In this document: in pieces, positions 7,087-29,813 of the stretch | How positions within the stretch are numbered: the first letter of the stretch is position 1 | How the letters are laid out: each line of letters begins with the position of its first letter | From: an uncultured Candidatus Micrarchaeota archaeon | Lineage (GTDB): Archaea > Micrarchaeota > Micrarchaeia > Norongarragalinales > CAINOH01 | Reading direction: 5' to 3' | DNA length: 64,000 nucleotides | NCBI GenBank assembly: GCA_903851445.1 | Contig: CAINOH010000009.1 | Coordinates: forward strand, 23,908 to 87,907 | Made by a program: the position numbers and the translations under genes | The notes under the pieces: model-generated | Seen by the model: only the letters and a program-made list of their open reading frames with translations | Databases searched by the model: none | What the model was told of the DNA's origin: nothing

Positions 7087-7100
7087 AGGTTGATGATGCT

Positions 7101-10370: not shown

Positions 10371-11269
10371 CGGTGCAAACGACAGTGGAAAGCAAGGTCC
10401 CGATGCTGCCGTTCTCGCTCGTGCCACCCCAGTTTACCTTCGAGCTTGCAAGCAAGACCCGGCCCCTTGGCACCGCAGTGCAGGCCTGGGTGCCCATCCT
10501 TGGCGACGACCTCCTGGGCGCAGGCTATGCCGACATCGACGCCGACACCTACGCAACCGCGTGCGTTCTCAACGCATTCACGAACTTCTTTGCCGTGTTC
10601 ATACTCATCGACTTGCTAGGCGCGCTCACGCTCACGCCGATGCTCCTGGTTGCGGGGCTTGCGTCCGCAGGCGTGGGCATTGCAACATTGGTCTCGTGCC
10701 TCGTCTGGCCCCAGATCATCGCAACGCAAAGGCGGCGCGCCATTGACGCGAACATGATTGCCGCAACCCGCCAGCTGCTCATACAGATACGCTCGGGCGT
10801 CCCGCTCTTCAACGCGCTCCTTTCGGTAAGCTCCGGCCACAGCAAGGTCTCGGAGGAGTTCTACAAGATTGCGGCCAAGCTCAACGCGGGCGTTGACGAG
10901 ACCGACGCGCTTGCCGAGGCGTCAGCAACCTCGCCGTCCATACAATTTCGCAAGGTGGTGTGGCAGCTTTCCAACGCGCTCAAGGTCGGCACCGACGTGG
11001 GCCTGGCGCTCGAGGCCACTCTTGGCGAGCTCGAACTCGAGCAGACCGAGCAAATCAAGAAGTATTCGCAGGAGCTCTCGCCCCTCACGATGATTTACAT
11101 GATAAGCGCAATCATCGTGCCGAGCCTGGGCGTGACAATGCTCATAGTCGTGGGCTCCCTGATGTCGTTCCCGATTCCCAAGGCAACGCTTGTCGTGGTG
11201 TTCATCGTGATGATAGGGTTCCAGGCGTTCTTCCTCAACTTCGTCGCCTCGCGCAGGCCGGTGGTGTGA
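10367..11269 (+). CDS. Pilus assembly membrane platform protein, TadB/FlaJ-like (T2SS-F domain), first half of a split platform
   Basis: Polytopic. T2SSF-like block IAATRQLLIQIRSGVPLFNALLSVSS...TDVGLALEATLGELE. Start overlaps the ATPase stop. Confidence 0.75.
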   Translation: MTVQTTVESKVPMLPFSLVPPQFTFELASKTRPLGTAVQAWVPILGDDLLGAGYADIDADTYATACVLNAFTNFFAVFILIDLLGALTLTPMLLVAGLASAGVGIATLVSCLVWPQIIATQRRRAIDANMIAATRQLLIQIRSGVPLFNALLSVSSGHSKVSEEFYKIAAKLNAGVDETDALAEASATSPSIQFRKVVWQLSNALKVGTDVGLALEATLGELELEQTEQIKKYSQELSPLTMIYMISAIIVPSLGVTMLIVVGSLMSFPIPKATLVVVFIVMIGFQAFFLNFVASRRPVV

Positions 11270-11272
11270 AAG

Positions 11273-12298
11273 ATGAAGACCAGTCGCATAATCACAAGGG
11301 CGTCCTACGTCCTGCCGCGAAAGTGGGTCGACTCGATTGGAAGGCTGCTTGTCAAGGGCGGGTTCAATACCACCAAGCACAGGTACCTGATAGGCCTTGC
11401 CATGCTTGGCGCTCTCTGTTTGGGCGCCCTGTCCAGCTTCATCTGCCTCGCTGTGATGCGCGACTATAAGTTCGCGGCGTTCTCCGGGCTCCTTATAATC
11501 ATGGCGGAAGTCGGCGGCGCGTACTTCATCCTCAAGTCAACTGCATTCCAGCGCAGCAAGAGGATAGAGAGCGTGCTCCCTGACGCTTTGCGCATCATCT
11601 CGGCAAACATGCGGGCCGGGATGACAATAGAGAACGCGCTGTGGTCCGCCGCAAGGCCCGAATTCGGCCCATTTAAGGACGAGCTGAGCAGGGTGGCTGC
11701 TGACACGTTCGGTGGGATGCCGATAGAGGATGCGCTCCTTTGCATGCCAGAGCGCGTTGACTCGCGGCTCGTGGAGCGCTCAATCGACCTGATGGTAGGC
11801 GGCCTGCGCCTGGGCGGACGCATGACCGACCTGCTTGACCACATCGCAGCTGACATCTCTTCGCGCCAGAGCCTGCAGCGTCAAATCGAGACTTCGACAA
11901 CGACCTACGCCATATTCATCGTGTTCTCGGCGCTCGTAGCCGCACCGATGCTCTTTGCAGTCTCCACGTTCTACTCGGAAATCAACGAGAAGACGCTCTT
12001 GGGTTTCACCGAGGGGATGCAGGTGAATTCGGCCGCCCGCGCACGCATAGCCTCGTCCGGCATCCCTATGCTTTTGCCATCAGCGCAGGCTGACCAGATA
12101 GGGTTTGCTGACATCCGCCTCTTCTCGCTCGGCGTAATCATCATCACCGCGTTCTTCGCATCCATAATCATCGCCCAGATAAAGGAAGGCGAGGCACACA
12201 GGGGCCTTTCCTACGTCCCCATTTTCGTCGCAGTTGCAATGACCGTGTTCCTGCTTGGCCTCTACGGGCTTGAGACCGCGTTTGCGGGAATGATATAA
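11273..12298 (+). CDS. Pilus assembly membrane platform protein, TadC/FlaJ-like (T2SS-F domain), second half
   Basis: LRIISANMRAGMTIENALWSAARPEFGPFKDELSRVAADTFGGMPIEDAL, then TM helices. 4 nt after the previous gene. Confidence 0.75.
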   Translation: MKTSRIITRASYVLPRKWVDSIGRLLVKGGFNTTKHRYLIGLAMLGALCLGALSSFICLAVMRDYKFAAFSGLLIIMAEVGGAYFILKSTAFQRSKRIESVLPDALRIISANMRAGMTIENALWSAARPEFGPFKDELSRVAADTFGGMPIEDALLCMPERVDSRLVERSIDLMVGGLRLGGRMTDLLDHIAADISSRQSLQRQIETSTTTYAIFIVFSALVAAPMLFAVSTFYSEINEKTLLGFTEGMQVNSAARARIASSGIPMLLPSAQADQIGFADIRLFSLGVIIITAFFASIIIAQIKEGEAHRGLSYVPIFVAVAMTVFLLGLYGLETAFAGMI

Positions 12299-12378
12299 AG
12301 GCGCAAAGCCGGCCAACAGCACGCATTAAATAAGACAGGAAAGTAATTTTTCAGGACGTTCCAAACGGTGATTATGTT

Positions 12379-12843
12379 ATGTCAAAAGGGCAAACCGCAC
12401 TCGAATACCTTGTCACTTACGGCTGGGCAATACTCGGCATCATCATCATAGTCGGCGTGCTCATCTCGTTCGGGGTGTTCAACCCGACCAAGTGGGCGAC
12501 CGTGCGCCAGCAGGGCGGATTCTCATCAATCGCAGTGCTTGACCACAGCATCACAGCAGGAACCGGCGGCGTCATGAAGATAGCTTTCCAGAACACGCGC
12601 GGAAACTCGATTACCATAACGCAGGTTGTGTCGATGGCCGGCGGGTGCGGCTGGACCGGCTCGCAGCTTCTGACTGTTGACAACCCCGTCTCAATCACCA
12701 CCAGCGCGTGCAACCAGACCACAGTCACCGGCGCAACCGTAGGCTCGGCGTACGACTTTTCCGACGTGGCCGTGACATACACCGACTCAGTATCGAGCAT
12801 GTCGCACACCGAACGCGGGTTCATCAAGGGCCAGTTCCAGTAG
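12379..12843 (+). CDS. Class III signal peptide pilin (candidate pilin of the Tad-like operon)
   Basis: MSKGQTALEYLVTYGWAILGIIIIVGVLISFGVF..., beta-rich C-terminus with Cys pairs. Confidence 0.7.
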   Translation: MSKGQTALEYLVTYGWAILGIIIIVGVLISFGVFNPTKWATVRQQGGFSSIAVLDHSITAGTGGVMKIAFQNTRGNSITITQVVSMAGGCGWTGSQLLTVDNPVSITTSACNQTTVTGATVGSAYDFSDVAVTYTDSVSSMSHTERGFIKGQFQ

Positions 12844-14641: not shown

Positions 14642-14929
14642 TCAGCGCCTAGCCTTCATCTTCTCGCCGACAAAGTTGATGAGGTCGCGGAGCTTCTTTT
14701 CCATGGTCGGGTAGTCAACGAGCTCATCCAGGCCGGTAAGCATCGACGCTACCTCGGGCTTGATTTTTAGGTACTCGCGCTCAAGCTGCTCCAGCCGCGA
14801 CGCGAGCTCGCCTATCTCATTCTGCGTACGCCTTCGGTAATCCAGGACGAAGTATATGGCAACCACGAGCACGACCATGGATGCTGCAAAGAGCCCGAAA
14901 GCGAGTGCCGACATACTGACAAGGGCCAT
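14642..14929 (-). CDS. Small membrane-anchored coiled-coil protein
   Basis: N-terminal TM helix, then a charged heptad-like segment (ELASRLEQLEREYLKIK). Confidence 0.4.
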   Translation of the reverse strand: MALVSMSALAFGLFAASMVVLVVAIYFVLDYRRRTQNEIGELASRLEQLEREYLKIKPEVASMLTGLDELVDYPTMEKKLRDLINFVGEKMKARR

Positions 14930-15240
14930 TACACTACGCCCCCCTCTATGACTGCTGACGTCAGGTCCCTAGCCTGCTTTGTGATGCTCTGCATCGCGTT
15001 GCGCGTAATCTTCCTCTCAAGCCCGGCTTTCGCATCCTGGATGCTTTGCGCCATCGCTGCAGACTCGGCGTGCGCCGCGTCAATCCTGGCCGAAAGCTCC
15101 GCCACCTTCGCAACCGCACCGTCGTGCGCCCTCTTTGCAAGGACGAACGCCACAAAAGCGCCCGCTAATGACACTAGGAAACAGAACCCCGCAACGTAGA
15201 CGTCTTCGACCATAGGAACATCAGGCAAAATCAACTGCAC
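14929..15240 (-). CDS. Small membrane-anchored coiled-coil protein
   Basis: TM helix then an Ala/Lys-rich helix. Overlaps the upstream pilin stop by 10 nt and the downstream gene by 1 nt. Confidence 0.4.
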   Translation of the reverse strand: MQLILPDVPMVEDVYVAGFCFLVSLAGAFVAFVLAKRAHDGAVAKVAELSARIDAAHAESAAMAQSIQDAKAGLERKITRNAMQSITKQARDLTSAVIEGGVV

Positions 15241-15710
15241 GTCCCGACGAGCGGCCTTGCGCCAGTCTGCCTCATGGAATAGTTCATGAAGTTGTACAGG
15301 ATGTTCACCTGCACCTCGAAGGCCTTGCCGGACGCGGTATAGACGCAGGGGTTTCCGCTTGTAAAGCTTGACACGTAAATGGCGTTCTCCTCGCCAGCTG
15401 AGAATACGTGGTAGCCCGTGCTCAGGTTATTGACGTTGCCCACGCTGTCTACGAACTGCATCTCGGTGACGTTGAGGCTGTCGGAGCCGCGGTTGGCAAG
15501 AACAAGCAGCGCGGTGCCGTTCATGACCTTGAATGCCGTGATTGAGAAGGGCGTGGCGGTCTTCCAGTAGGACTCCGACTCCCTTTCCCTGCCGGGCCCG
15601 CCCACTTGCGGGAACCAGCCCAAAAGCGCTATGACGACCATCGCCACTAGAAGCACCGCGCCCAAAATGACAAGATATTCCGTTGCGCCCTGCCCCTTTG
15701 AGCGGACCAT
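15231..15710 (-). CDS. Major-pilin-like protein (class III signal peptide), paralog 3
   Basis: MVRSKGQGATEYLVILGAVLLVAMVVIALLGWFP...; many NxS/T sequons; C-terminal ...LVGTCS. Confidence 0.75.
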   Translation of the reverse strand: MVRSKGQGATEYLVILGAVLLVAMVVIALLGWFPQVGGPGRERESESYWKTATPFSITAFKVMNGTALLVLANRGSDSLNVTEMQFVDSVGNVNNLSTGYHVFSAGEENAIYVSSFTSGNPCVYTASGKAFEVQVNILYNFMNYSMRQTGARPLVGTCS

Positions 15711-15870
15711 ACAATCACCTATATTGCAAATGAAATTGGCTTATGCAAAGGGAACGGAAAAGGGGAATAAAAAAGTAGGTTTTGGGAACAACTTGCCCCA
15801 TCGCCCGAAAGGGCACAAGGAGCAGAGGGAGAAAAAGAAAAACAAAAAAAAGAAAAAAGGGAATTGGTGC

Positions 15871-16380
15871 TTACGAGCACCTTCCAACCAGGGACTGCGC
15901 GCCCTGCTGTCGAATCCCGGTAATCGACCCCTGGGTGTAGCCGAACGCCACAATCTTGAGCTCGAACGGGTTGCCCGTCTTCGAAGTGACTCCGTTGCAC
16001 GGGTTGGTGGCGTTGACGCCTACTAAGAAAGTGAAAGGCACAGTAACCACTGCTTCCTCGCCTCCGTTGAAAGACTGGGCCGGACTCGCTACGACGTATG
16101 TAAACGTACTCGTTCCATTAGGAATTTCAATCGAAGTCAGGGTCAGTGCGTCAGAAAGCCTGTTTGAAAGCGAGAAGGTCATTGTCGTGTTGTCGACCTT
16201 GAACGAGTTTATCGCAAACGGGCTTGCACCGGACCAGTACGCCTTGGACTGCTGCTCCTTTGTAGAGCCGCCGAGCGCGGGGAACCAGCCAAGAAGGCTT
16301 ACTACTACAAGCGCGACAAGCAACACTGCGCCCAATATGACAAGATATTCCGTTGCGCCCTGACCTCTTGAGTAGACCAT
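15871..16380 (-). CDS. Major-pilin-like protein, paralog 2
   Basis: MVYSRGQGATEYLVILGAVLLVALVVVSLLGWFPALGGSTKEQQSKAYWSGASPFAINSFK...IRQQGAQSLVGRCS. Confidence 0.8.
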   Translation of the reverse strand: MVYSRGQGATEYLVILGAVLLVALVVVSLLGWFPALGGSTKEQQSKAYWSGASPFAINSFKVDNTTMTFSLSNRLSDALTLTSIEIPNGTSTFTYVVASPAQSFNGGEEAVVTVPFTFLVGVNATNPCNGVTSKTGNPFELKIVAFGYTQGSITGIRQQGAQSLVGRCS

Positions 16381-16542
16381 ATCATCACCTATACCTATAT
16401 TGCAAATGAAATTGACTTATGTAAAGGAACGGAAAGGGAGAATAAAAAAGTAGGTTTTGGGCCTTGTTCTTTTGGGCGATGGGAAAACTAAAGGAATGGT
16501 GAGAAAAAGAAAAACTAAAAAAAGAAAAAAGGGAATTGGTGC

Positions 16543-17040
16543 TTACGAGCACCTTCCAACCAGGGACTGCGCGCCCTGCTGGCGAATCCCGGTAATCGCC
16601 CCAGAGGTGTAGGTGAACGCCACAATCTTGATCTCAAACGGATTGCCCGTCTTGGACGCGCCCGATGAGTAGCACGGGTTGGTGGAATTTGCGACGGTCG
16701 TAGTAACCACCGCTTCCTCGCCCCCGTTGAAGGCCTTGGCCGGCCACGCTACCGTATATGTAAACGTGCCCGTTCCATTAGGTATGTCAATCCCAGTCAG
16801 GGTCAGCGAGTCAGAAAGCCTGTTTGAAAGCGAGAAGGTCATTGTGGTGCCGTCAAGTTTGAACGAGTTTATCGCAAACGGGCTGGCGCCGGACCAGTAC
16901 GCCTTGGACTGCTGCTCCTTTGTAGAGCCGCCAAGCGCGGGAAACCAGCCAAGAAGGCTTACCACGACAAGAGCGACAAGCAAGACTGCGCCCAATATGA
17001 CAAGATACTCGGTCGCACCCTGCCCTCTCCTAAACTGCAT
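16543..17040 (-). CDS. Major-pilin-like protein, paralog 1
   Basis: MQFRRGQGATEYLVILGAVLLVALVVVSLLGWFPALGGSTKEQQSKAYWSGASPFAINSFK..., ~85% identical to paralog 2. Confidence 0.8.
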   Translation of the reverse strand: MQFRRGQGATEYLVILGAVLLVALVVVSLLGWFPALGGSTKEQQSKAYWSGASPFAINSFKLDGTTMTFSLSNRLSDSLTLTGIDIPNGTGTFTYTVAWPAKAFNGGEEAVVTTTVANSTNPCYSSGASKTGNPFEIKIVAFTYTSGAITGIRQQGAQSLVGRCS

Positions 17041-17233
17041 TGTAAACCACCTTAAATGAAAATGGACTAAGAAATCAAGATGCCGAGTTTATTTAAATAG
17101 GTTGCTTAACTCCGGCGTTTTCGCGCAAACCCAACGCCCAACGCCATACTTTCTCCTCTAATAAAAGCGATGGCTTTTTAAAGAGCCGAACAGAAATGAC
17201 ATAAAATAATTGATACAAAAAGGTGAACTGCTG

Positions 17234-17620
17234 ATGTCTGAAACAAAGAGGGGCCAGGGCGCGTTCGAGTACATTCTGATGCTGTCGGGAGTGCTCCTGA
17301 TAGTGATACTCATAATATTCATACTCCAAGGGACGATAACGGGAACAAACAACACTATGGGAACACAGCAAAACACGCTCAACAGCACAGTAAACGTGGA
17401 CATAGTACCGCAATACACGCAATGTTTGATAGTCACAAGTGCAACTGGCAGCATCACCGGACCATCATACCCCTGCTGCGTCCTTAACGGAGCCGCAAAC
17501 CTTGCCGCATGCACAGCAGCAGGATGCGCCGGAGTACCTGGGATTGTTCAATGCACCCAAACCACACTTGCCAGCTGTCCGACAAGCCAGTTCAACAGGA
17601 AAATAGGAAGGTGCGCGTAA
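17234..17620 (+). CDS. Cysteine-rich mini-pilin (family member 1)
   Basis: MSETKRGQGAFEYILMLSGVLLIVILIIFILQGTITGTNNTM... then PCC...C...C...FNRKIGRCA. Confidence 0.7.
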   Translation: MSETKRGQGAFEYILMLSGVLLIVILIIFILQGTITGTNNTMGTQQNTLNSTVNVDIVPQYTQCLIVTSATGSITGPSYPCCVLNGAANLAACTAAGCAGVPGIVQCTQTTLASCPTSQFNRKIGRCA

Positions 17621-17662
17621 GCGCACACTTTCCCCATCTTTCTTAAGAGGTGAACAAGGAAT

Positions 17663-18001
17663 ATGAGACGCGGACAAGGCGCATTTGAATACATACTCAT
17701 GCTTTCGGGGGTACTGCTGATTGTGATAATCATCATATTCATACTCCAGGGGACAATCGGCGGGGCGAACAACACGATGACAGCACAGCAAAACACCTAC
17801 AACACGTCAGTGTCCGTGGATATCGTGCCCCAGTACACGGCAAACCTAATAGTGATGAGCCAGACTGGCGGACTTGGCGGCCCATACCCCTGCTGTGAAA
17901 ACTTCGCTACGCCAGGATGCACCGGAGTAATAATCAACTGCACCGGCACGCTCAACTGCTATTCAAGCAGGTTCGACAGGAAAGTAGGAAGGTGCGTATA
18001 A
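17663..18001 (+). CDS. Cysteine-rich mini-pilin (family member 2)
   Basis: MRRGQGAFEYILMLSGVLLIVIIIIFILQGTIGGANNTM...PCCENFATPGCTGVIINCTGTLNCYSSRFDRKVGRCV. Confidence 0.75.
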   Translation: MRRGQGAFEYILMLSGVLLIVIIIIFILQGTIGGANNTMTAQQNTYNTSVSVDIVPQYTANLIVMSQTGGLGGPYPCCENFATPGCTGVIINCTGTLNCYSSRFDRKVGRCV

Positions 18002-18042
18002 GCGCATTGCCTCTCTTTTTTTATTTTTAAATAATTGAAATA

Positions 18043-18420
18043 GTGATTGGGACTATGATGAGGCGCGGCCAGGGGGCATTTGAGTACATCCTGATGCTGT
18101 CCGGGGTGATTCTCGTGGTCATAATCATCCTGCTCATACTGCAGGGCAGCATCTCATCCACAAACAACACGCTTGCGGACAACGAGAACAAGTTTGGAAC
18201 CTATACGACGGTCGACTTTGACAACCACCGGACGCCCAACCTGTACGTGGCTGAGCAGACGGGTACTACCACAATAACAAACACGCCCTGCTGCTCGAAC
18301 GTGAACTCGTCTACAGTAAAATGCTACGGCCCGAACAGCGTATCGAGCACCACCATATGCAGCGCAAACATCACGTGCCCGTCGAAATACTTCAACAACG
18401 CAACTGGCACCTGCGGCTGA
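18043..18420 (+). CDS. Cysteine-rich mini-pilin (family member 3)
   Basis: ...MMRRGQGAFEYILMLSGVILVVIIILLILQGSISSTNNTL...PCCSNVNSSTVKCYG...CSANITCPSKYFNNATGTCG. Confidence 0.7.
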   Translation: MIGTMMRRGQGAFEYILMLSGVILVVIIILLILQGSISSTNNTLADNENKFGTYTTVDFDNHRTPNLYVAEQTGTTTITNTPCCSNVNSSTVKCYGPNSVSSTTICSANITCPSKYFNNATGTCG

Positions 18421-18482
18421 GAAAGAAATAATATAAAAAAAACATTAGCTATAGCAGGAACTTTACTACGAGGAGAATAAAA

Positions 18483-18830
18483 TTGCGGCGCGGGCAGAAC
18501 TATTACGGGATAATGCTCGTGTGCGTGCTCGCGCTCACCCTCGGCACCATCTTCCTGCTTTCACAGGCGCCGCCGGCAATCAACGCCTCGCTTTCAAGCT
18601 CGCAGGACAGGCTTGACAACGGCTCGATTTCGGGGGTTGCACCCCAAGGCGACGCGGACCTTCTTGTGCTAAGGCGCACGGGCAACGTCGCAGTCGACTC
18701 CGCCATTCCCTGCTGCGCGAACGCCAAAAGCGGATGTGGTGGAAACGCGGCCAACTGCACCTATTCAAATGGCAACAGCCTGTCGTGCTTTTCCCGGCTT
18801 TTCGACACTGACGCCGGCTCTTGCGCATAG
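18483..18830 (+). CDS. Cysteine-rich mini-pilin (divergent family member 4; TTG start)
   Basis: MRRGQNYYGIMLVCVLALTLGTIFLL...PCCANAKSGCGGNAANCTYSNGNSLSCFSRLFDTDAGSCA. An aggagaataaaa motif lies upstream. Confidence 0.55.
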   Translation: MRRGQNYYGIMLVCVLALTLGTIFLLSQAPPAINASLSSSQDRLDNGSISGVAPQGDADLLVLRRTGNVAVDSAIPCCANAKSGCGGNAANCTYSNGNSLSCFSRLFDTDAGSCA

Positions 18831-18892
18831 CAAGAATACGCCGCGGATGTTTTCTGCAAAGAATATTAAGCGCTGCAAGAGTAGCGAATAAT

Positions 18893-19078
18893 ATGAAGCG
18901 GAAAGGCCTTGGGCAGCGCGGGCAGACGTCGACGGAGTACATGCTGCTCATAGCCCTCGGCCTGACAATAGTGATTGTCTCGATCGCAATAGCAACCCAG
19001 ATCAAGGGGATGACCGACTCGCTTCTGGTGCGCGCGCAGGTTGAGCGCGAGTCCACAATCTCTATGATTGTGCGCTGA
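18893..19078 (+). CDS. Minor pilin-like protein (61 aa)
   Basis: MKRKGLGQRGQTSTEYMLLIALGLTIVIVSIAIATQIKG... Confidence 0.55.
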   Translation: MKRKGLGQRGQTSTEYMLLIALGLTIVIVSIAIATQIKGMTDSLLVRAQVERESTISMIVR

Positions 19079-19139
19079 TTGTTTCCCAGCAAGGGCGTTG
19101 CTTCAAAACCAATATTAGTACCCGCAGGCCACACTTTGC

Positions 19140-20183
19140 TTGACAACACTTATGACGGACTTCCTGCTTTTCGCCTTTGCAGCTGCCTATTGCGCAACCG
19201 CCTGCTACATTGACATCAGGCATAGGACAATACCGGACTGGCTCACTTACGGCGGCATCGCAGCCGGGCTTGCCCTTGGCGGCCTCAACTGCCTTGCCCT
19301 GGGAGGTGCCTTTGCTTTGCAATACACGCTGATGCTTGCAACCGCGCTTGCCCTGGGCTACCTCCTGTTCGCCCTTGGCGTGTGGGCCGGCGGCGACGCA
19401 AAATTATTCTGGGCGTTTGCCGCGCTGCTTGGCGCTGCAAGCCGTGCAGACGTGCTCCTTCCGGTTGTGCTGTTTGCGGCCTCGGCGCTGCTTTTCCTTG
19501 CCTGGACGTTCGTTTCGAACGCGGGAACCATACTGAAGAAAAGAAGGGAGTGCACGCGAATAGCTGTTGATTCGGCAGCAAAGGCAGTTGGCGCGGCGGC
19601 AGTTGCCTCGCTTTTTGCCAGCGGCCTTGGCGCGGATTACATCCTTGCGGCAATCGTTGCAGTTGCATTTCTTCTTGTGCAGCTGCCGAAATACGCCTGG
19701 CTGGCGATATTGCTTGTTGCGCTTGCCTTGAACGCCGACGCAACCACAGTCGCGTTCCCGCTCTCCTTTTTGCTTGCATCCGCAATAGGGACGGTGGCGG
19801 GAATAGGCTCGAAAGTCATTGCGCCCAGCCTCACCTACAAAGTGCGCAAGGCCGACCTTGAGGAAGGGATGCTGCCAGCGTACACGGTGATTGAAAATAA
19901 CGGCAAGGCGGTGCTGTTTCGGCCAATGTTCGACTTGGGCGGAATAATCAAGGCAGCACGAAAGGAAAGCGATGTGAAAAAAATCCTCCAAAAAGCGGGT
20001 GCGATTCCGCCTGCCGGCTCAAAAATAGTCGCGGATTCCGCAGACGCGGCCGGGCTTGAAGCTTCGCAATTGCAGAGGTTAAAAAAGCTGGGAAATGTTA
20101 GATGGTTGCAAGTGCGGAGGACAACGGCATTCGCGCCGGTCCTTTGCGTTTGCTTTCTTGCGGCGCTTGCCGGGTTGTTCTGA
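19140..20183 (+). CDS. Prepilin/preflagellin peptidase (A24 aspartic peptidase, PibD/FlaK-like) with a C-terminal extension
   Basis: Two catalytic Asp motifs at canonical spacing: CYIDIRHRTIPD (D~24) and GVWAGGDAKLFWAF (GGDxK, D~86). Eight or more TM helices. TTG start. Confidence 0.75.
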   Translation: MTTLMTDFLLFAFAAAYCATACYIDIRHRTIPDWLTYGGIAAGLALGGLNCLALGGAFALQYTLMLATALALGYLLFALGVWAGGDAKLFWAFAALLGAASRADVLLPVVLFAASALLFLAWTFVSNAGTILKKRRECTRIAVDSAAKAVGAAAVASLFASGLGADYILAAIVAVAFLLVQLPKYAWLAILLVALALNADATTVAFPLSFLLASAIGTVAGIGSKVIAPSLTYKVRKADLEEGMLPAYTVIENNGKAVLFRPMFDLGGIIKAARKESDVKKILQKAGAIPPAGSKIVADSADAAGLEASQLQRLKKLGNVRWLQVRRTTAFAPVLCVCFLAALAGLF

Positions 20184-20196
20184 AGGGTAGACGAAG

Positions 20197-20625
20197 ATGC
20201 GCGGACAGGTCGGGCTGGAATTCTTCCTAATACTGGGCTTCTGCCTTGCAATGCTCACAATACTGATTTCGGACTCGGAGCGGGAGATAACCGAGAACGA
20301 AAAGCTTGACACTGCCGTGCTTTCGCTTTCAGCGCTGAACTCGGTGTCCAACGCAATCAACATCGTTGCCTTGCAGGGCAACGGCGCACAGTTGGCAGTT
20401 AGCGCGTTCGTGCCGTCAAAAAGCAAGTGCTACCTGCCGGTTGCTTCAGAGCAGCGGCTTGCTTGCGACATCGGCGACGCGTACGGCCGGCGCGTGTACG
20501 GGATGAGGCTGATGGCGATGCCGGACACCATCAACGATGCGTGCTACACCACGTACGGCTGGATGGACGTTACCGTGAAGAAGGCGGCCGGAAAGATTGA
20601 AATCTACTGCTCGGGGCAGGCGTGA
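20197..20625 (+). CDS. Class III signal peptide pilin-like protein
   Basis: MRGQVGLEFFLILGFCLAMLTILI...; Cys pairs in the C-terminal part. Confidence 0.6.
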   Translation: MRGQVGLEFFLILGFCLAMLTILISDSEREITENEKLDTAVLSLSALNSVSNAINIVALQGNGAQLAVSAFVPSKSKCYLPVASEQRLACDIGDAYGRRVYGMRLMAMPDTINDACYTTYGWMDVTVKKAAGKIEIYCSGQA

Positions 20626-20632
20626 GCGGCTT

Positions 20633-21055
20633 ATGCTTTCTGGAAGGGACGGAAAACGCGCGCAGACCTCGGTAGAGTACATGATGGCGCTTGCGATGAC
20701 CCTCGTGATCGTTGCGGCCATCATGGTCGGCGGGTTCCGCGAGCTCGAGCTTGACCTTGCGCTTGGCGCTGCAAGGATGGGCGGCACCGACTTTACCGCC
20801 GGGAACCCGGGCTACACGCTTGGAAGGGTTGACTTTACCCTTAACGAGAGTGAAAACACCATTAATGTCACGCCGCACTTCTACCTTCGCGGCGCAAGCA
20901 CGATCCCGGACGAGGACAGGATTACGGCCGGGTCCCTATGCTTTTCCAAGATACGAAGCGTGTTCCAGCCAGGCAACTTAAGCCCGAGCGCGGACTATTG
21001 TTTTGACGCGACTTACCGGCGCTACTGCGTCACTCCGGTAATGGCGCCGGCATAG
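20633..21055 (+). CDS. Class III signal peptide pilin-like protein
   Basis: MLSGRDGKRAQTSVEYMMALAMTLVIVAAIMVGG... Confidence 0.55.
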   Translation: MLSGRDGKRAQTSVEYMMALAMTLVIVAAIMVGGFRELELDLALGAARMGGTDFTAGNPGYTLGRVDFTLNESENTINVTPHFYLRGASTIPDEDRITAGSLCFSKIRSVFQPGNLSPSADYCFDATYRRYCVTPVMAPA

Positions 21056-21063
21056 GTGAGACG

Positions 21064-21600
21064 ATGAGACTGCTTCCAACTGACGACGTTTCAAGGTTCC
21101 AGCTTTTCTCGCTGCTTTTCCTCGCGGCCATACTCGCGTCCACGTTCATAGGCACGTACGCGTTTGCGGCCACGCTCCTGCTGTTTGGAATCCTTTGCCT
21201 CTTCCTAGCGCAGCCGCTTGCGCAGGCGCAGAGGAAACAGGCGTACGCGCTGTTCTGTATATTCGGCCTCTTCGGCCTTGGCGCGCTCTTGGGAAGCCTG
21301 TTAGTAGCTTCACCCGCCCAGGCGCTCGGCTTTTTCCCGCTGTTGATTGTTGGTTTTCTTGCCCTGTACGCAGTAGTCAAGCTCTACGTGGTAAGCGGTG
21401 ATGCGGAGTGCAAAGTCATCGGCTACTCCGAAGGCTACGCGATAGTCGATGTCGCACCGTCGGTGCTGGCGGCAATCCCGCCGGGAATCCACGCGGTAAA
21501 AAGCAGGCCTGTTGCGAAGGGAAGGAAGGCGCGGCTTGTCTTTGAGCGCAAGCTTTTCGGCTCCGCGTCAAAGCCAACCGGCCTTGAGACGCACTCCTGA
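21064..21600 (+). CDS. Polytopic membrane protein of unknown function inside the pilin island
   Basis: Four to five TM helices then a ~60 aa soluble tail. No class III motif. Confidence 0.4.
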   Translation: MRLLPTDDVSRFQLFSLLFLAAILASTFIGTYAFAATLLLFGILCLFLAQPLAQAQRKQAYALFCIFGLFGLGALLGSLLVASPAQALGFFPLLIVGFLALYAVVKLYVVSGDAECKVIGYSEGYAIVDVAPSVLAAIPPGIHAVKSRPVAKGRKARLVFERKLFGSASKPTGLETHS

Positions 21601-21694
21601 TTTTTGCCTAATGTTAAACGTGGGAAAAGTTGGGCCGCCACCAGCGTTGCCCTTTCGGCAGTTTTTTATCGTGCAGCATAATACTTCCTTTGCG

Positions 21695-22168
21695 ATGAGG
21701 GGACAGATGGCGTTGGAGTTCTTTTTTGCAATGGCGCTAGTCTACCTTTCGGTCTCCTGGCTGGTCAACTACCTTAATGCGGGCTACGACTCCGGCAGGT
21801 TCCTCGCATTGCGAGAGGAAAAACTTGTTGCTGCTGAAATCGCCGGCCTTGCAAACAGCGCCTGCGTGTCAAACTTGAGCGCGACAATCAACGCGCCGTG
21901 CATGACGTACATTGGAAAACCAACCGGCTACTGGCTTTACACCGACGGCAACAGGCTCATAGTCAATACCTCACTCGCGCCAGAGGCTGCGAGGGCAGTG
22001 GCGGTCTGTGATGTTTACGCCAACCTGACGGAATACAACGCGACTTTTGGCGTGTTCGAGCAGCAGCAAATGGCCTGTGATGCCAACACTTTCGAAGGCA
22101 CAGAGATATGCGTCCGGCCGGACGGCACGGGAAAGGTCGGCCTCTCAATGGGGCGGTGCACGTCATGA
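21695..22168 (+). CDS. Class III signal peptide pilin-like protein
   Basis: MRGQMALEFFFAMALVYLSVSWLV...; several Cys. The internal ATG is chosen over the long ORF from 21512. Confidence 0.55.
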   Translation: MRGQMALEFFFAMALVYLSVSWLVNYLNAGYDSGRFLALREEKLVAAEIAGLANSACVSNLSATINAPCMTYIGKPTGYWLYTDGNRLIVNTSLAPEAARAVAVCDVYANLTEYNATFGVFEQQQMACDANTFEGTEICVRPDGTGKVGLSMGRCTS

Positions 22169-22569
22169 GCCACTACCGCCGCAAGGCCAGGCGTGCGCAG
22201 TTCTTCTCGGCAGACTTTGTAGTTGCAACGGTAACGCTGTGCTTTGCGCTCGGGTTCCTCCTGCACTCCGGCCAGCTTTCGCTTGACAGTTTCTCAAAAT
22301 ACGGCCAGCACGACAACAACATAGCCGAGACAGTTGCCGCAAGCCTTACAACGCCCGGCGCGCTGCCGGTTGCTCCGGCAAAAATGCCGCATACTTGCTG
22401 GGAATACGACAACGGGACGAATTCGACACCGGACTGCGCGTCGGTAATTGACGGCACCGGCGGGTGCGCTGGCCGCAAGATGGACACATATTCCGCAAGC
22501 AGGCTTGTCGCGTGCGGAAACTCGGCGTGCCTTTTGACTGTAAGAAGCTGCGATGTGGTTGTGCAATGA
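22165..22569 (+). CDS. Pilin-like / signal-anchored secreted protein
   Basis: MSHYRRKARRAQFFSADFVVATVTLCFALGFLL...; Cys-rich; start overlaps the previous stop. Confidence 0.5.
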   Translation: MSHYRRKARRAQFFSADFVVATVTLCFALGFLLHSGQLSLDSFSKYGQHDNNIAETVAASLTTPGALPVAPAKMPHTCWEYDNGTNSTPDCASVIDGTGGCAGRKMDTYSASRLVACGNSACLLTVRSCDVVVQ

Positions 22570-22994
22570 GACGGGCGTTCATCTTCACTGCTGACGCGAT
22601 TTTTGCGCTGATGATGCTGGGCGCGGTGGCGCTCATGTTTACAGTGTACGCGACGCAGCCGGAGTATTCTGCCAAGACGACCCTCTTGCAGGCCATTGCC
22701 TATGACTATGCAACGCTTTCACTGCCGCCGGTGAACCTTGACGAGAGCACGTTCAAGGCAAAGACGGGCTTTGACGTTTACGTCTCGGAGGGCGCGGTGC
22801 CAAACGCAAGGCAAATCGTGGTGCGGGCGACAAAGTACGCGTACAACAACTCGTGCAACAGCAAGGACTGCAGCAAAAACTGCAGCATTACCAAGGCCGA
22901 TGCGACCGGGTCGGGCGGGTACGGCTGCCTTACAAACCAGGCGCTTGACCGGTTCGGCATAATCAGCACAAAAGCGTGGGTGGCTACCCCATGA
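22566..22994 (+). CDS. Pilin-like / signal-anchored secreted protein
   Basis: MRRAFIFTADAIFALMMLGAVALMFTVY...; ATGA overlap with the neighbour. Confidence 0.5.
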   Translation: MRRAFIFTADAIFALMMLGAVALMFTVYATQPEYSAKTTLLQAIAYDYATLSLPPVNLDESTFKAKTGFDVYVSEGAVPNARQIVVRATKYAYNNSCNSKDCSKNCSITKADATGSGGYGCLTNQALDRFGIISTKAWVATP

Positions 22995-23614
22995 AGGGAA
23001 TGTTCTCTTTCGCAGTGGCAATGTTCGCCTCACTGGTTCTCTTCTACTTCGTGGCCAGTGTGGTTTCCATCTCGGAATACCAGGCCATCGGCCAGAAGCG
23101 GCTGCAGGTGCAGGTGCTCTCGCAGGCCTACGGCGACGCGACTGGAGTTTATGACGATGCAGTAATGGATGCGATACTCGATTCGGCTTACTCGTCAGAT
23201 GATGCCAACGCCTGCAATGGCGCTACGGGCGCGCTTTCAAGCAAGCTTGCCACTAAGGTGCAGTCGTATGTTGACCACACCACCACCAACCTTTCAGCAG
23301 CGTTCGATGGCACCGCAACCGCCGCCACGTCCTGGCCCGCATCGGGCCTCTACGTTGACATTTCCCCTGGCCAGCAGACGCTGGCCCCGTCGTGCAAGGC
23401 AGCAGCGGACGCGAGCCTCGTCCTGAATCGCGTGAATGCAACCGTGGCTTTCCCGCTCAACGTCACTTCAGCCGACGGGTCAACAGGCGCGGTGTCAAAG
23501 CAGTTCAATCGCTCCTACGAAATACTGACCAACTACTCCGCCGCGAGCAATTCGTTCACAATTCTGGTCCGGCGCAACGGCGTTGACATGCGCTGCGTCA
23601 ACGTCGCCTGCTGA
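22991..23614 (+). CDS. Signal-anchored secreted protein (pilus-associated?)
   Basis: MKGMFSFAVAMFASLVLFYFVASVVSI...; ATGA overlap with the previous gene. Confidence 0.45.
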   Translation: MKGMFSFAVAMFASLVLFYFVASVVSISEYQAIGQKRLQVQVLSQAYGDATGVYDDAVMDAILDSAYSSDDANACNGATGALSSKLATKVQSYVDHTTTNLSAAFDGTATAATSWPASGLYVDISPGQQTLAPSCKAAADASLVLNRVNATVAFPLNVTSADGSTGAVSKQFNRSYEILTNYSAASNSFTILVRRNGVDMRCVNVAC

Positions 23615-23692
23615 ACTCGTTTCCTTCCCTCACCAAAACGGTTAAATCGGCTTGCAGGCACTAAGAGTCAATAGGGGAAAAGGGGGATTGTC

Positions 23693-24337
23693 GTGGACCG
23701 CCGGTCGGTCACTTTCGCAATACTGGTCGTTGTAGTGCTGATAGCCGTTGCCATGCTCACTACACCGCCCCGGAACACCGCATTCACATCAAAGGACGCG
23801 GTTGACGCGAGCTTGAAGGATGCCCAGCAGTTCGCGGCAGTCGGTTATCCTGGCGCGGAGACTTACATCGAAGTGACGTCGGCATCCAACGCATCGGGAA
23901 AGTGGAAGGTCGAGATGCGCCTTTCAATTGCACCGCACTCGCGGTGCCCTGCGATGCAGAAGCTGTACTACGAGATGTTTCCGGTTACTTTGCGCAACGA
24001 GACGGTTGTTGCGGCCAACGACTGCCACGCTAGGCCAATCAGCGTTGCGCCGGACGCGATAGTTGACTCTTATGCTGACTCGGCAGGCGCAAGGCAGGCA
24101 CAATCAATAGGGTATGCCGCTTGCGCTTTCCAAATCCCGCTTTCGGATGTTGCCGCTGCGACAAACTATTGCCCTGCTGTTGACAATGCGTCCATTGCGG
24201 ATTTTGCATCAAGTAATGCGCTCAAGGACGGCTCGTGGGTGGTGCAGTGGTACAGGAAGGCCTCTGACAGCTACCTGGTGGCGCTGGACTCCTCCGGGAG
24301 CCTGCTTGCCGAGGGCAACTACGCACCCAGGACGTAA
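23693..24337 (+). CDS. Signal-anchored secreted protein
   Basis: GTG start; MDRRSVTFAILVVVVLIAVAMLTTP... then a Cys-containing ectodomain. Confidence 0.45.
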   Translation: MDRRSVTFAILVVVVLIAVAMLTTPPRNTAFTSKDAVDASLKDAQQFAAVGYPGAETYIEVTSASNASGKWKVEMRLSIAPHSRCPAMQKLYYEMFPVTLRNETVVAANDCHARPISVAPDAIVDSYADSAGARQAQSIGYAACAFQIPLSDVAAATNYCPAVDNASIADFASSNALKDGSWVVQWYRKASDSYLVALDSSGSLLAEGNYAPRT

Positions 24338-24386
24338 GCGCGGGCTGCCAAACCCGTTTTTATTTTCAGCCAGTGTAAACCAGTAG

Positions 24387-24539
24387 ATGAAAAAATCGTG
24401 CCGCGGCCAGACCGCCACCGAGATGCTGCTGATAATCGCGTTCGTGGTGTTTATCGCCGCCATTGCAATAGTAATGTCCACCCAAGTGGTCGCAGGCATG
24501 GCCAACTCGGTGAGCAACGTCACGATCATACCAAAATAG
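24387..24539 (+). CDS. 50-aa mini-pilin with class III signal peptide (below the ORF-track cutoff)
   Basis: Own translation: MKKSCRGQTATEMLLIIAFVVFIAAIAIVMSTQVVAGMANSVSNVTIIPK*. R-G-Q, E at +5, hydrophobic helix; followed by a T-run at 24551-24557. Confidence 0.55.
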   Translation: MKKSCRGQTATEMLLIIAFVVFIAAIAIVMSTQVVAGMANSVSNVTIIPK

Positions 24540-27513: not shown

Positions 27514-29580
27514 CTAATTTTTCTGCCTGAAAAAGTCAAGGTACGGGTCAACAAACTGCGACCATAATTGCGCGGGGTTCTTCACCGGAACTGGCTCCTT
27601 GTCAAGCGCGAACAGCTCGGGACAATACCCGATTGCAGACTCCGAGAATTCCTGCTCAAGCGACGACGCAAGAAGCTGCTCCGCAAGGTCGGCCCGGTCG
27701 CACAACAGTAGGAATTTGTACAGGTAGGGGTTGTCGCGCGGCCAGCACACGTGGCCGTGGTACTGCGCATCACCCTCAAACTCATCCTCAAAGCCGGCTC
27801 CTGCGCGCACGGGGATGCCGAACGCCTTGCCGTTGCGGTACACCAGGTTCTGCTGCACCCGCTCGAACGCCCGTGAAAAGTCGGCTTTCCGGAAAAGGTG
27901 GGAAACGAGCGAGTACGCGACAACCGAAGCGCTCGAGAACGAGGAGTCGCGGAGCGAAAACGGGTCCTCGCAGTTTGCGGTGTGCGCAAGGAAGCCGTCG
28001 TGGAAGAATACCTCGTGGAAGTTGCGCTGCGAGACCTTGTAAAGCCAGTCGAGCTCGTTCCTCCTCGGGAGCGAAAGCCGCGACGCGTGGCGAAGAAGGG
28101 AAATCCAGAGCGCGTTGATTTCAACAAGAAAGTATCTTGCTGCTGCGGCCTTGGCTTGTTCAGCAGGCGTAGTGCCTAACCATTCCTGCGGGATGCGACG
28201 CGGGATTAGGATCTCCTCGCCGCCGACATCAATTTTTTTGCACGAGTCCATCCAGGAATAGTTTGCGGGGCAGGACAGCAGGCCATAGTCAAGCACAACC
28301 GCGTGCTTTTTGCTTGCGGCCTGCGAAAGGAATTTCTTGAGCGCGTGCGAAACCGCCTTTGCAACCTCCGCGTCTGCAGAGAACTCGTAATACTTGCACC
28401 CGCAGAGCATGCACAACAGTGTGGAGTCAAGGCCGTTGCTTGCCCTGTCGCCGTTCACGCCGACCCGCGTCGGGATAAGCCCCGCGTCGTCCTGCATTGA
28501 AAGCCCGGAGAGGATCAGGCTGCGGGCCTTGCCTGGCTCGCAGCGGAAGAAGAAGTCAAAATTCGAGTACAATGCCTCGAAGCAGTCGCGCAGCCAGAGC
28601 TGGCGGAACCACATCGAACCCGCGTCAAACCCGGCCACGCCCGAGGATTCAAAGTCGAAGTTGTGGGCAATCCCGTAGAGCCGCCATTCAAGCCTGTTGG
28701 CCTCCTTTTCCCCCCACAATTTCCTTGCAGCCAGGAGCTCCGAGGAAAACTTTGTTGCGATTGCGTCAAGATAGGCGGGGTTTGCCGATGCCGCAACCGT
28801 CGGCTGGCTTGCTGGCTTGTCGCCAAAAAAGGCGGTTGCGATAAGAATTGCGTTTCGCTCCTTCGTTGCCACCTCGATTTCGCCGGCTATCCTTGATGTC
28901 GCCCTTGCGGGCCTGGGAACCGTGCCGGAGGCATCTTTTCTTCGCTCGCCAAAGCCGAGCTTGCAGTCCCACTGCTGGAGGATATCAAGCGGGGTGGCGC
29001 GGACTGCGGTATCGGAACAAACCTCGACTGATGCTCCGGCCGAAGTGCACAGCAGGGATTTTTTTTCTGTTGCGACTGCGGAGATGTCCTTGGCGCAATC
29101 AGGAGAGGGGAACGGCGAAAGGCTGATTAGCGGCCGCACGATTATGCGGGTGCTGTCAGCGACAGCACCGCTCGCATCAATGGAAAAATGCGTGACCAGG
29201 GCTGGTTGCGGGCCGTGTGAAAGCGAATAAGTGACGATGAGTACGCCGGAACTGGATTGCGAAGAGAAGGCATAGGAGTATTTTGCGCTCCAGGGGGTTA
29301 TGGAGACTCCTTTTGGCGAAAGCTCAATGGGGTTTCCGGCAGCGTCCGAAACGCCGATTGCGTAGGCGTCAAGAATCTTGTACTGGCGCTCGGAAAGGAA
29401 CACGCTGAAGCCTTCGCACAAGAAGTCGCGGTTGGGGCAGTAAAGGTTCCCAAGCTTTGCTGAAAATGCGGACCAGCAGGCTTCCGAGGACTTGTTCCGT
29501 ATGAGGGTGCGGGCAGTGCGAAAGGGGTTTTCACTGTCCTCGCCGCAGGAAAGTTCCTCTACAAGATGCTCGTGGCGCAA
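27514..29580 (-). CDS. Six-hairpin glycoside hydrolase, amylo-alpha-1,6-glucosidase (GDE_C)-like; candidate glycogen debranching enzyme
   Basis: 688 aa. Central ...GFDAGSMWFRQLWLRDCFEAL... resembles the GDE_C/GH133 entry motif. Operon context with GH57 and glycogen synthase. The family call is tentative. Confidence 0.5.
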   Translation of the reverse strand: MRHEHLVEELSCGEDSENPFRTARTLIRNKSSEACWSAFSAKLGNLYCPNRDFLCEGFSVFLSERQYKILDAYAIGVSDAAGNPIELSPKGVSITPWSAKYSYAFSSQSSSGVLIVTYSLSHGPQPALVTHFSIDASGAVADSTRIIVRPLISLSPFPSPDCAKDISAVATEKKSLLCTSAGASVEVCSDTAVRATPLDILQQWDCKLGFGERRKDASGTVPRPARATSRIAGEIEVATKERNAILIATAFFGDKPASQPTVAASANPAYLDAIATKFSSELLAARKLWGEKEANRLEWRLYGIAHNFDFESSGVAGFDAGSMWFRQLWLRDCFEALYSNFDFFFRCEPGKARSLILSGLSMQDDAGLIPTRVGVNGDRASNGLDSTLLCMLCGCKYYEFSADAEVAKAVSHALKKFLSQAASKKHAVVLDYGLLSCPANYSWMDSCKKIDVGGEEILIPRRIPQEWLGTTPAEQAKAAAARYFLVEINALWISLLRHASRLSLPRRNELDWLYKVSQRNFHEVFFHDGFLAHTANCEDPFSLRDSSFSSASVVAYSLVSHLFRKADFSRAFERVQQNLVYRNGKAFGIPVRAGAGFEDEFEGDAQYHGHVCWPRDNPYLYKFLLLCDRADLAEQLLASSLEQEFSESAIGYCPELFALDKEPVPVKNPAQLWSQFVDPYLDFFRQKN

Positions 29581-29586
29581 CTTGCA

Positions 29587-29802: not shown

Positions 29803-29813
29803 TTTATCCCCCT

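Follow-up and report, generated by a model that had tools for sequence, protein, structure and literature searches.

What does a DPANN archaeon do with a run of fifteen prepilin-like genes gathered around a single prepilin peptidase gene? This question is raised by positions 15231-24539 of a 64-kb stretch of DNA (contig CAINOH010000009.1, 64,000 nucleotides, called the window throughout) from an uncultured Candidatus Micrarchaeota archaeon, a region that the original prediction described as a pilin island. DPANN archaea need contact with other cells, the molecules of first contact are largely unknown, and papers on Micrarchaeota usually note just that type IV pili are present (PMC8561730). Our answer, to which we assign a probability of about three in four, is that a single archaeal type IV filament supercluster of the Epd/Tad-like kind ("system 1") occupies about 5.7-24.5 kb of the window, and that the region supplies its pilins, minor pilins and peptidase. 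Gene models were taken from the listing of open reading frames (ORFs) between 14 and 26 kb and from gene calls on database contigs with identical proteins; they are given here with lengths in amino acids (aa), a slash marking the predicted cut in a prepilin N-terminus.

15231-15710, minus strand: majA, 159-aa prepilin, MVRSKG/QGATEY..., with a beta-sandwich-type head (Class_IIIsignal 23.6 bits)
15871-16380, minus strand: majB, 169-aa prepilin paralog (Class_IIIsignal 22.7 bits; structure model)
16543-17040, minus strand: majC, 165-aa prepilin, apparent duplicate of majB (Class_IIIsignal 24 bits)
17234-17620, plus strand: mini1, 128-aa Cys-rich prepilin (Class_IIIsignal)
17663-18001, plus strand: mini2, 112-aa Cys-rich prepilin (Class_IIIsignal)
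18055-18420, plus strand: mini3, 121-aa Cys-rich prepilin (Class_IIIsignal)
18483-18830, plus strand: mini4, 115-aa Cys-rich prepilin with a degenerate N-terminus, QNYYGI (no Class_IIIsignal match; homology to mini1)
18893-19078, plus strand: pil61, 61-aa headless prepilin, mature form 51 aa, no Cys (Class_IIIsignal 20.3 bits)
19152-20183, plus strand: A24 prepilin peptidase, 343 aa, with an archaeal C-terminal domain matched below threshold (Peptidase_A24)
20197-20625, plus strand: d1, 142 aa, MRG/QVGLEF, minor-pilin-like (motif scan; Class_IIIsignal 13.2 bits)
20633-21055, plus strand: d2, 140 aa, KRA/QTSVEY, minor-pilin-like (motif scan)
21064-21600, plus strand: d3, 178-aa polytopic membrane protein without class III signal (no Pfam family)
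21695-22168, plus strand: d4, 157 aa, minor-pilin-like (motif scan)
22165-22569, plus strand: d5, 134 aa, minor-pilin-like (motif scan)
22566-22994, plus strand: d6, 142 aa, minor-pilin-like (motif scan)
22991-23614, plus strand: d7, 207 aa, minor-pilin-like (motif scan)
23693-24337, plus strand: d8, 214-aa signal-anchored extracellular protein, not a prepilin (no Pfam family)
24387-24539, plus strand: d9, 50-aa headless prepilin, MKKSCRG/QTATEM, mature form 43 aa, convergent with ABCE1 (Class_IIIsignal 17.0 bits)

The number of conserved genes, 18, is the number originally given for pilin-like genes, but only 15 of them are prepilin-like, the others being the A24 peptidase and two further membrane proteins, d3 and d8. 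Three tandem beta-sandwich paralogs and four Cys-rich small pilins with 6-8 cysteines each agree with the earlier description, as does the 50-aa headless prepilin d9 at the end; with pil61 and d9 forming a headless class (50-61 aa), the remaining six prepilins are minor-pilin-like. The three maj genes lie on the minus strand and the other 15 genes on the plus strand. The Pfam family Class_IIIsignal (PF04021, cutoff 23.7 bits) recognises majC and mini1-3 (24-31 bits, mini1-3 at 27-31), with majA and majB just under the cutoff and weak scores for pil61, d9 and d1. A FlaFind-like motif scan, run with our own script and not the published program, looked for [KRDE][GAS] ahead of a hydrophobic stretch free of charges. 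Of the 17 non-peptidase genes, 15 carry such an N-terminus; the other two are the polytopic d3 and d8, which the loose pattern picks up at RS/V and which we judged to be a plain signal anchor. Over the whole window the scan marks 29 ORFs; the reversed sequence gives 4, and 30 Markov-1 simulations average 0.5. Class III N-termini, on which the original prediction leaned, are therefore supported by both approaches; NCBIfam holds no meaningful family for 10 of the pilin-like proteins.

That these ORFs are genuine genes in a stable neighbourhood follows from comparison with relatives. The peptidase has 15 database homologs, the nearest annotated as Candidatus Micrarchaeia, and the contigs encoding four of them (L001-L006 and L027) made up the synteny set. 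Throughout this set the gene order is identical: ATPase, two platform genes, pil154, an RsmB-like methyltransferase, a FAD/NAD oxidoreductase and two small coiled-coil membrane proteins, then two maj genes, four to five mini genes, pil61, A24 and d1-d9, and finally ABCE1 (on the opposite strand), Pelota and a debranching enzyme. Orthologs of all 18 genes are found in related Micrarchaeia at 52-85% amino acid identity, compared with 85-93% for housekeeping genes. In the relatives used for substitution rates, whose ABCE1 is 88-90% identical, the Nei-Gojobori ratio of nonsynonymous to synonymous substitutions (dN/dS) is 0.10-0.44 for the 18 genes and 0.07 for ABCE1 and the ATPase, ratios that are approximate because dS is about 0.7-1.5, near saturation. 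All genes of the region are under purifying selection, and the coding conservation and shared order that the original prediction had proposed to look for are both present. Positive selection was considered and dropped, all dN/dS values lying below 0.45 at near-saturated dS. Pilin copy number varies, with two maj and four to five mini genes in the relatives vs three and four in the window.

The borders 15231-24539 proved too narrow, as they cut off an assembly ATPase, platform genes and six pilin-like genes at 5701-12843.

5701-8197, plus strand: u1-u5, five minor-pilin-like genes of 146, 131, 189, 182 and 183 aa, 5' of the ATPase (motif scan)
8167-8877, plus strand: u6, 236-aa coiled-coil-like accessory protein, directly 5' of the ATPase and overlapping its start (no Pfam family)
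8874-10370, plus strand: assembly ATPase of the type II/IV secretion family, 498 aa (T2SSE, PF00437, E-value 3.5e-32)
10367-11269, plus strand: platform gene 1, TadB/TadC-like, 300 aa (one T2SSF domain, PF00482)
11273-12298, plus strand: platform gene 2, TadB/TadC-like, 341 aa (one T2SSF domain, PF00482)
12379-12843, plus strand: pil154, 154-aa prepilin, MSKG/QTALEYLVTYGWAIL, 3' of the motor genes (motif scan)

The two platform genes match T2SSF with E-values of 8.5e-16 and 6.4e-15, and the ATPase is 87-93% identical in close relatives (dN/dS 0.07). Neither the ATPase, the platform genes nor the A24 gene has a further copy in the window, so that the peptidase is the only one of its kind, as predicted, within these 64 kb. 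The motor lies about 5 kb upstream of 15231-24539, and the motif scan counts 21 prepilin-type genes over the approximately 19 kb from 5.7 to 24.5 kb; with a motor and additional pilins upstream, this syntenic span is therefore better read as one filament supercluster than as an island, if that word is taken to mean something separate or mobile, and we infer that motor and pilins are paired. Together with three large genes farther along, described below, the window holds 24 class III-type genes, close to the 25 or so first estimated. When the genome collection was scanned with the ATPase, the matching Micrarchaeia loci were 87-92% identical; identity was 58-59% in Norongarragalinales and other Micrarchaeota, and about 48% in Woese-, Nano- and Aenigmatarchaeota. 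In loci of Norongarragalinales, Woesearchaeota and Aenigmatarchaeota a partial match to u6 (37-46% identity) occupies the corresponding place, and u6 may belong to this DPANN type of pilus as a conserved accessory protein, either cytoplasmic or in the membrane.

The peptidase itself matches Peptidase_A24 (PF01478) with an E-value of 2.6e-11. Across 10 homologs, the most distant 32% identical, residues D21 and G80-G81-D82-A83-K84 never vary; the enzyme thus has both catalytic Asp motifs, consistent with an active A24 aspartic protease. The protein carries PF01478 and PF06819 only, with no methylase domain, and a sequence search of the PDB returned no solved relative. Its start in our model is a TTG codon, and the database gene call begins four codons later.

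Three classes of candidate structural pilin can be told apart, the first being the beta-sandwich family. The proteins majA and majB are clearly related (hhalign probability 100%); majA orthologs are 78-81% identical with a dN/dS of 0.11, and that of majB is 0.20. At the DNA level majB and majC form repeats of 89-92% identity, and relatives have just two maj genes at the locus, so majC appears to be a recent duplicate of majB. The family comprises 61 homolog clusters, most of them unnamed, and every source-named one is Candidatus Micrarchaeia. The AlphaFold2 model of majB (mean predicted local distance difference test, pLDDT, 78.6) has a pilin fold, with an N-terminal helix at 7-31 and an Ig-like beta-sandwich, and its best PDB matches are 8fk7 (the Pyrobaculum calidifontis type IV pilus) and 8q30 (Sulfolobus acidocaldarius Aap), with E-values of about 7e-4; a maj profile search of PDB sequences gave nothing significant. 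The earlier remark that most of these proteins lack a recognisable globular domain thus holds for Pfam but not for this model. Each maj gene has an oligo-T tract 3' and a TATA-like TTTTTTATT box and GGTGAT ribosome-binding site 5', suggesting that majA, like the maj genes generally, is monocistronic with its own expression signals. Upstream, pil154 (87-90% identical in relatives, dN/dS 0.09-0.12) aligns to majB with hhalign 89% over 131 columns and is probably a remote member of this family; its type of N-terminus, Q[AT]ALEYLVTYGWAIL, stands beside the ATPase across DPANN phyla and is the same in four other loci (L009, L012, L015 and L020).

A shared C-terminal feature was also noted: G-[RTS]-C-x closes nearly all of majA-C and mini1-4, and also d4 and d7, so that the next-to-last residue is a cysteine. 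Each maj protein has two cysteines, and the penultimate one could pair only with the other, about 40 residues upstream, which hints at a disulfide-closed loop at the C-terminus, comparable to the D-region in type IVa pilins of bacteria.

The second class consists of the Cys-rich mini-pilins (dN/dS 0.13-0.29), in which mini4, for all its degenerate N-terminus, aligns with mini1 at hhalign 97% over 113 columns. The family has 50 clusters, few of them source-named and those Micrarchaeia, and its alignment shows an almost invariant helix, RGQGAFEYILMLSGVLLIVILIIFILQG, followed by invariant or near-invariant cysteines in the pattern PCC...C...C...C...GRCA with a length-variable loop between. A mini-pilin model (AlphaFold2, pLDDT 76) has a helix at 8-52 and a small head, for which Foldseek found no fold match in the PDB. 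Both the Cys-rich family and the maj heads appear lineage-restricted, so far comprising only Micrarchaeia-affiliated sequences. Strain-level hypervariability of the mini-pilins was considered and rejected: within each of the pairs L001/L002, L003/L004 and L005/L006 identity is 99.3-99.7%, the mini genes show no surplus of differences, and what look like length variants (100 vs 112 aa, 105 vs 115 aa) come down to different start-codon calls. When a mini profile was searched against 1.84 billion representatives, about 25 of the 270 matches covered the Cys-rich head, and most others were proteins of 450-1974 aa that share the N-terminal helix alone. The window itself contains three large class III proteins outside the supercluster, as had been predicted.

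46559-48382, plus strand: 607-aa class III protein with a PEGA domain and a mini-type helix, QGAFEYLLMLGG (Pfam; N-terminal comparison)
50118-51728, plus strand: 536-aa class III protein, RG/QTALEYLLILAG, no domain match (Class_IIIsignal 23.5 bits)
57375-58979, minus strand: 534-aa class III protein with DUF285 repeats (E-value 2.6e-68) and a weak PKD match (Class_IIIsignal 25.8 bits)

Because the mini-pilin N-terminal helix is common to both, mini-pilins and large adhesin-like proteins probably co-assemble, the latter acting as modular pilins that would display their domains.

Headless pilins make up the third class. The best-conserved pilin of 15231-24539 is pil61 (80-85% identity, dN/dS 0.10-0.12), which carries the motif G/XXXXEY and lies directly 5' of the peptidase gene in every locus, including that of the distant relative L026, where its ortholog of 56 aa is 36% identical over the full length. 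A sequence search of the PDB with pil61 gave nothing significant. The other headless pilin, d9, aligns with pil61 at hhalign 94% and is less conserved (52-58% identity, dN/dS 0.37-0.44). On contig B8LQpBOx, which encodes an identical ABCE1, a 50-aa gene past ABCE1 at the contig end is called on the strand opposite to d9, probably a gene-calling artefact and not an inversion.

The remaining prepilins are minor-pilin-like. Orthologs of d1 and d2 are 69-81% identical (dN/dS 0.14-0.28; 37% and 29% in L026) and those of d4-d7 59-78% (dN/dS 0.14-0.33), with only a weak DUF7287 match for d5 (E-value 0.012, far below cutoff). The predicted ATGA overlaps were found at d4/d5, d5/d6 and d6/d7, by which d4-d5-d6-d7 appear translationally coupled. 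Among their non-pilin neighbours, d3 is 63-73% identical in close relatives and 30% in L026, and d8 is 71-75% identical (dN/dS 0.12-0.14), with an L026 ortholog at 27-31%. All relatives carry two genes between d3 and d4, a small one (86-130 aa, OB-fold-like in L026) and a polytopic membrane protein of about 350-400 aa that is annotated PF01970 TctA in L026 (L001 12761-13873; L003 4348-5654; L005 12524-13875; L027 10636-11996; L026 12367-13949). At 21601-21694 the window has merely a 94-nucleotide spacer, which suggests that both genes were deleted from the pilus operon in this lineage.

Upstream of the ATPase, u1-u5 have orthologs in L007 and L008, and equivalent modules lie 5' of the ATPase in Woesearchaeota, Nanoarchaeota and other Micrarchaeota loci, where no d-block occurs within 10 kb. 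When the mature N-termini of the two sets are compared, the following pairs emerge.

u1 QVSLEY vs d1 QVGLEF: clear best match
u2 QVALEF vs d4 QMALEF: best within the module (14 vs 13 for d2 and d9)
u3 QVLSAE vs d5 QFFSAD: clear best match
u4 IAFAID vs d6 FIFTAD: best within the module
u5 FAYSLA vs d7 MFSFAV: weak match

This collinear mapping ranks 3rd of 120 permutations by N-termini, and u1 with d1 (hhalign 77% over 78 columns) is the sole pair with profile support beyond the N-terminus. We regard u1-u5 and d1, d4-d7 as two putative, roughly collinear five-gene minor-pilin modules.

How such parts might work together can be set out in order. Prepilins would insert into the membrane, and the A24 peptidase would cut after [KR][GA] at -1, leaving Q, F, I or M at +1; most prepilins have an acidic residue at +5 or +6 of the mature N-terminus. 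The ATPase and two single-domain platform proteins would then extract the mature pilins and polymerise them through their N-terminal helices. The candidate structural subunits would be the beta-sandwich majA-C, related to pil154, the headless Flp/EpdE-like pil61 and d9, and the Cys-rich mini-pilins, any of which could be the major pilin, with one or several filament types as the outcome. The d4-d7 proteins with d1 may be minor pilins that prime or cap filaments, as a second copy of the u1-u5 module. A bolder extension, which we hold to be doubtful, is that one motor and one peptidase run a combinatorial pilus in which the two five-gene modules select among the three subunit classes and the mini helix serves as a universal adaptor, loading adhesin domains of 450-1974 aa for host recognition. 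The organism is a tiny DPANN archaeon of Candidatus Micrarchaeia, probably dependent on a host, an affiliation that fits a surface-attachment lifestyle, and from taxonomy and analogy an adhesive role in host attachment is plausible.

Several observations weigh against one Epd/Tad-like supercluster. No MinD/FleN- or FlaH-like ATPase was detected among the genes scanned with Pfam from 6.5 to 24.5 kb (the prepilin-like u1 and u2, at 5701-6539, were not scanned), and such a secondary ATPase could be encoded elsewhere. The match of the peptidase to the archaeal Arc_PepC domain (PF06819; E-value 8.9e-4, 19.9 bits) falls under the 23.4-bit cutoff, and its homolog P0014, 30% identical, carries PF06819 in a precomputed table. 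The paralogy of the u- and d-modules is mostly N-terminal similarity in shallow alignments, with u5-d7 weak. In L007, whose ATPase is 92% identical, synteny ends after the majA ortholog (16434-21494), with the breakpoint between majA and majB and histidine-biosynthesis genes next, so that motor, u-set and majA stand apart from the remaining block and physical linkage is not obligatory; the supercluster therefore consists of at least two separable modules. Lastly, the d-block may originally have belonged to a different, paralogous motor, possibly still elsewhere in the genome, because the ATPase of L026 is only 40% identical to that of the window and lies, by its branching, outside the whole set of DPANN ATPases with 43-59% identity to the latter.

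The gene order of L026, in which the peptidase is 30% and ABCE1 54% identical, is informative on this last point. It runs from an intein-containing ATPase through two TadC genes, pilins of 33 and 70 aa, a mini-like pilin of 138 aa and the pil61 ortholog to A24, d1, d2, d3, an OB-fold protein, TctA, d4, d5, d6, d7 and d8, followed by ABCE1, Pelota and the debranching enzyme. Counterparts of d4, d5 and d6 are identified by BLAST (d5 weakly, E-value 0.03) and that of d7 by position only. As the block directly follows a motor in one row, the mini-to-d8 block is old and ancestrally an operon-level partner of a motor. The L026 pilus ATPase (1810-6594) is a 1594-aa gene with two inteins bearing LAGLIDADG endonuclease domains.

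From the same facts the strongest of the rival explanations can be built, namely that two independent machines adjoin each other: the mini-to-d9 block, with maj, would depend on a second, D-type motor outside the window, the upstream ATPase would serve u1-u5 and pil154 only, and their proximity would be an accident of rearrangement. The ATPase and two TadC genes directly 5' of the block in L026, the outgroup position of that ATPase relative to the U-type DPANN ATPases, the occurrence of the U-type module (u-set, ATPase and pil154) with no d-block within 10 kb in other DPANN, and the separation of both parts in L007 all speak for it. However, a second ATPase or platform gene is absent from the 64-kb window, seven related contigs show none within 10 kb of the block, and relatives whose peptidases are 64-72% identical keep the neighbourhood of motor, RsmB-like methyltransferase, oxidoreductase, maj, mini and A24 genes intact. 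DPANN genomes are also small, and one ATPase/TadC set is able to serve several pilin sets (PMC4858521). We consider two machines unlikely, and prefer the single supercluster.

Whether that supercluster builds long pili at all may be asked too, given that many large proteins have the mini-pilin N-terminal helix. The class III proteins could instead form a short pseudopilus or surface-display scaffold, similar to a bindosome or a type II secretion system, to which the large adhesin-like proteins and further surface proteins would be anchored, or by which they would be exported. In bacteria, the pseudopilin sets GspG-K look like analogs of the five-gene minor sets. A recent preprint proposes functionalised type IV filament machineries with class III signal binding proteins (10.64898/2026.04.22.720090). 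Against such a scaffold stand the monocistronic maj genes with their strong-looking signals, the filament-subunit fold of the majB model, the headless Flp-like pilins, which are typical of true pili, and the thin filaments "that could represent archaeal pili" on ARM-1, another cultivated DPANN symbiont (PMC11329633), and we think it quite improbable, more so than two machines. To a horizontally acquired or mobile island, or a spurious run of ORFs, we give next to no credence and reject it, since the dip in guanine-plus-cytosine (GC) content to 0.50 around 16-18 kb (0.55-0.58 in the flanks) is outweighed by synteny with ABCE1, Pelota and RsmB flanks in all relatives, down to 54% ABCE1 identity, by dN/dS values of 0.10-0.44 for every gene, and by scans of the region, in which no flanking repeats and no integrase, transposase or tRNA genes turned up (over the whole window, tRNA and Rfam searches gave no matches).

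Some neighbouring features were recorded as well. Two single-pass coiled-coil-like membrane proteins (95 and about 94-103 aa) lie in the interval between oxidoreductase and majA at 14642-15240 on the minus strand and occur in all close relatives (68-84% identity, dN/dS 0.07-0.21). On the far side, a glycogen-metabolism cluster at 27514-34033 adjoins Pelota and is syntenic in relatives; its genes, identified from gene calls on identical contigs, encode an amylo-alpha-1,6-glucosidase, two GT4-type glycosyltransferases and a GH57 enzyme. A TnpB/IS605 OrfB-type gene (OrfB_IS605, Cas12f1-like TNB and helix-turn-helix domains) at 35499-36647 on the minus strand lies where GC is lowest in the window (0.49-0.50 at 34-38 kb).

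For one Micrarchaeia lineage the locus amounts to a conserved parts list of 21 prepilin-type genes, one peptidase, one motor and three large class III proteins with an N-terminal helix like that of the Cys-rich mini-pilins. Should the modular-adaptor idea be true, these would include candidate host-recognition determinants and offer a tractable case of one type IV machine that builds several filaments.

Among known systems the closest is the Epd (EppA-dependent) pilus. System 1 (Epd-like) loci, which are known from DPANN too, pair two platform genes with a peptidase of their own; they encode many pilins, at least five of them minor, and their major pilins are short (PMC4858521, PMC6668835, bioRxiv 10.64898/2026.04.22.720090). 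The peptidase of such loci is of the EppA type (arCOG02300), the short major pilin is arCOG06620-like and has no globular head, and a secondary MinD/FleN- or FlaH-like ATPase counts among their marks. Two single-T2SSF platform genes are the criterion of Denise et al. 2019 (PMC6668835) and at least five minor-pilin genes that of Makarova et al. 2016 (PMC4858521), while Sivabalasarma and Albers 2026 (10.64898/2026.04.22.720090) report Epd-like system 1 for DPANN. Like the Epd pilus of Methanococcus maripaludis ("system/clade 1"), the locus has one ATPase with two platform genes of one T2SSF domain each, an A24 peptidase of its own, many pilins including at least five minor-pilin-like genes (u1-u5; d1, d2, d4-d7), and very short headless pilins (mature pil61 51 aa, d9 43 aa) that are candidates for the short major pilin, a likeness of architecture; the archaeal C-terminal region of the peptidase is matched below the Arc_PepC cutoff. 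It differs in its gene order and two minor-pilin modules, in having no MinD/FlaH-like secondary ATPase among the Pfam-scanned genes, and in its extra beta-sandwich and Cys-rich pilin families, so far only Micrarchaeia-affiliated.

Bacterial Flp pilins are processed at the motif G/XXXXEY, and bacterial Tad loci have the gene order flp-tadV. Both features of these Tad/Flp (type IVc) systems recur here, the motif literally (RG/QGATEY, RG/QGAFEY, RG/QTSTEY) and the order as a short pilin gene directly 5' of the peptidase gene, together with a peptidase without methyltransferase domain and a platform split as TadB/TadC. In contrast, the cell envelope is archaeal, most pilins have globular heads, and the Pfam scans of the locus detected no homologs of the secretin (RcpA/CpaC), TadZ or TadD/E/F/G. 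The locus is thus not a member of bacterial Tad/Flp but only a relative of the Tad lineage, without a secretin as expected for an archaeon, in keeping with the link drawn between Tad and Epd (PMC6668835). An archaellum was rejected, as the locus genes gave no Pfam match to an archaellin or a FlaF/G/H/X-type accessory and the platform is split and not FlaJ-like.

The Aap (8q30) and Pyrobaculum calidifontis (8fk7) pilins share with the majB model an N-terminal helix and an Ig-like beta-sandwich, but at only 15% sequence identity and TM (template modelling) scores of 0.37-0.46, and in their systems the platform is one protein with two domains and the accessory genes are different. Haloferax volcanii PilA1-6 likewise comprises several pilin paralogs with near-identical N-terminal helices, probably run by one peptidase and motor (PMC4858521), but the organism is a halophile, its ATPase and platform belong to a different clade, and its pilins have no Cys-rich heads. 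For host attachment a functional analogy is offered by the Saccharibacteria, episymbionts of the candidate phyla radiation (CPR), in which type IV pili have been shown to drive host binding (PMC11623550). They too are ultrasmall episymbionts with multiple pilin genes, although theirs is a bacterial machine of the type IVa pilus kind, not homologous at the locus level. Set beside these systems, the locus is of a well-supported but expected type that is unusually rich in pilins, and its less ordinary traits are the duplicated minor-pilin modules, the adaptor helix and the lineage-restricted pilin heads.

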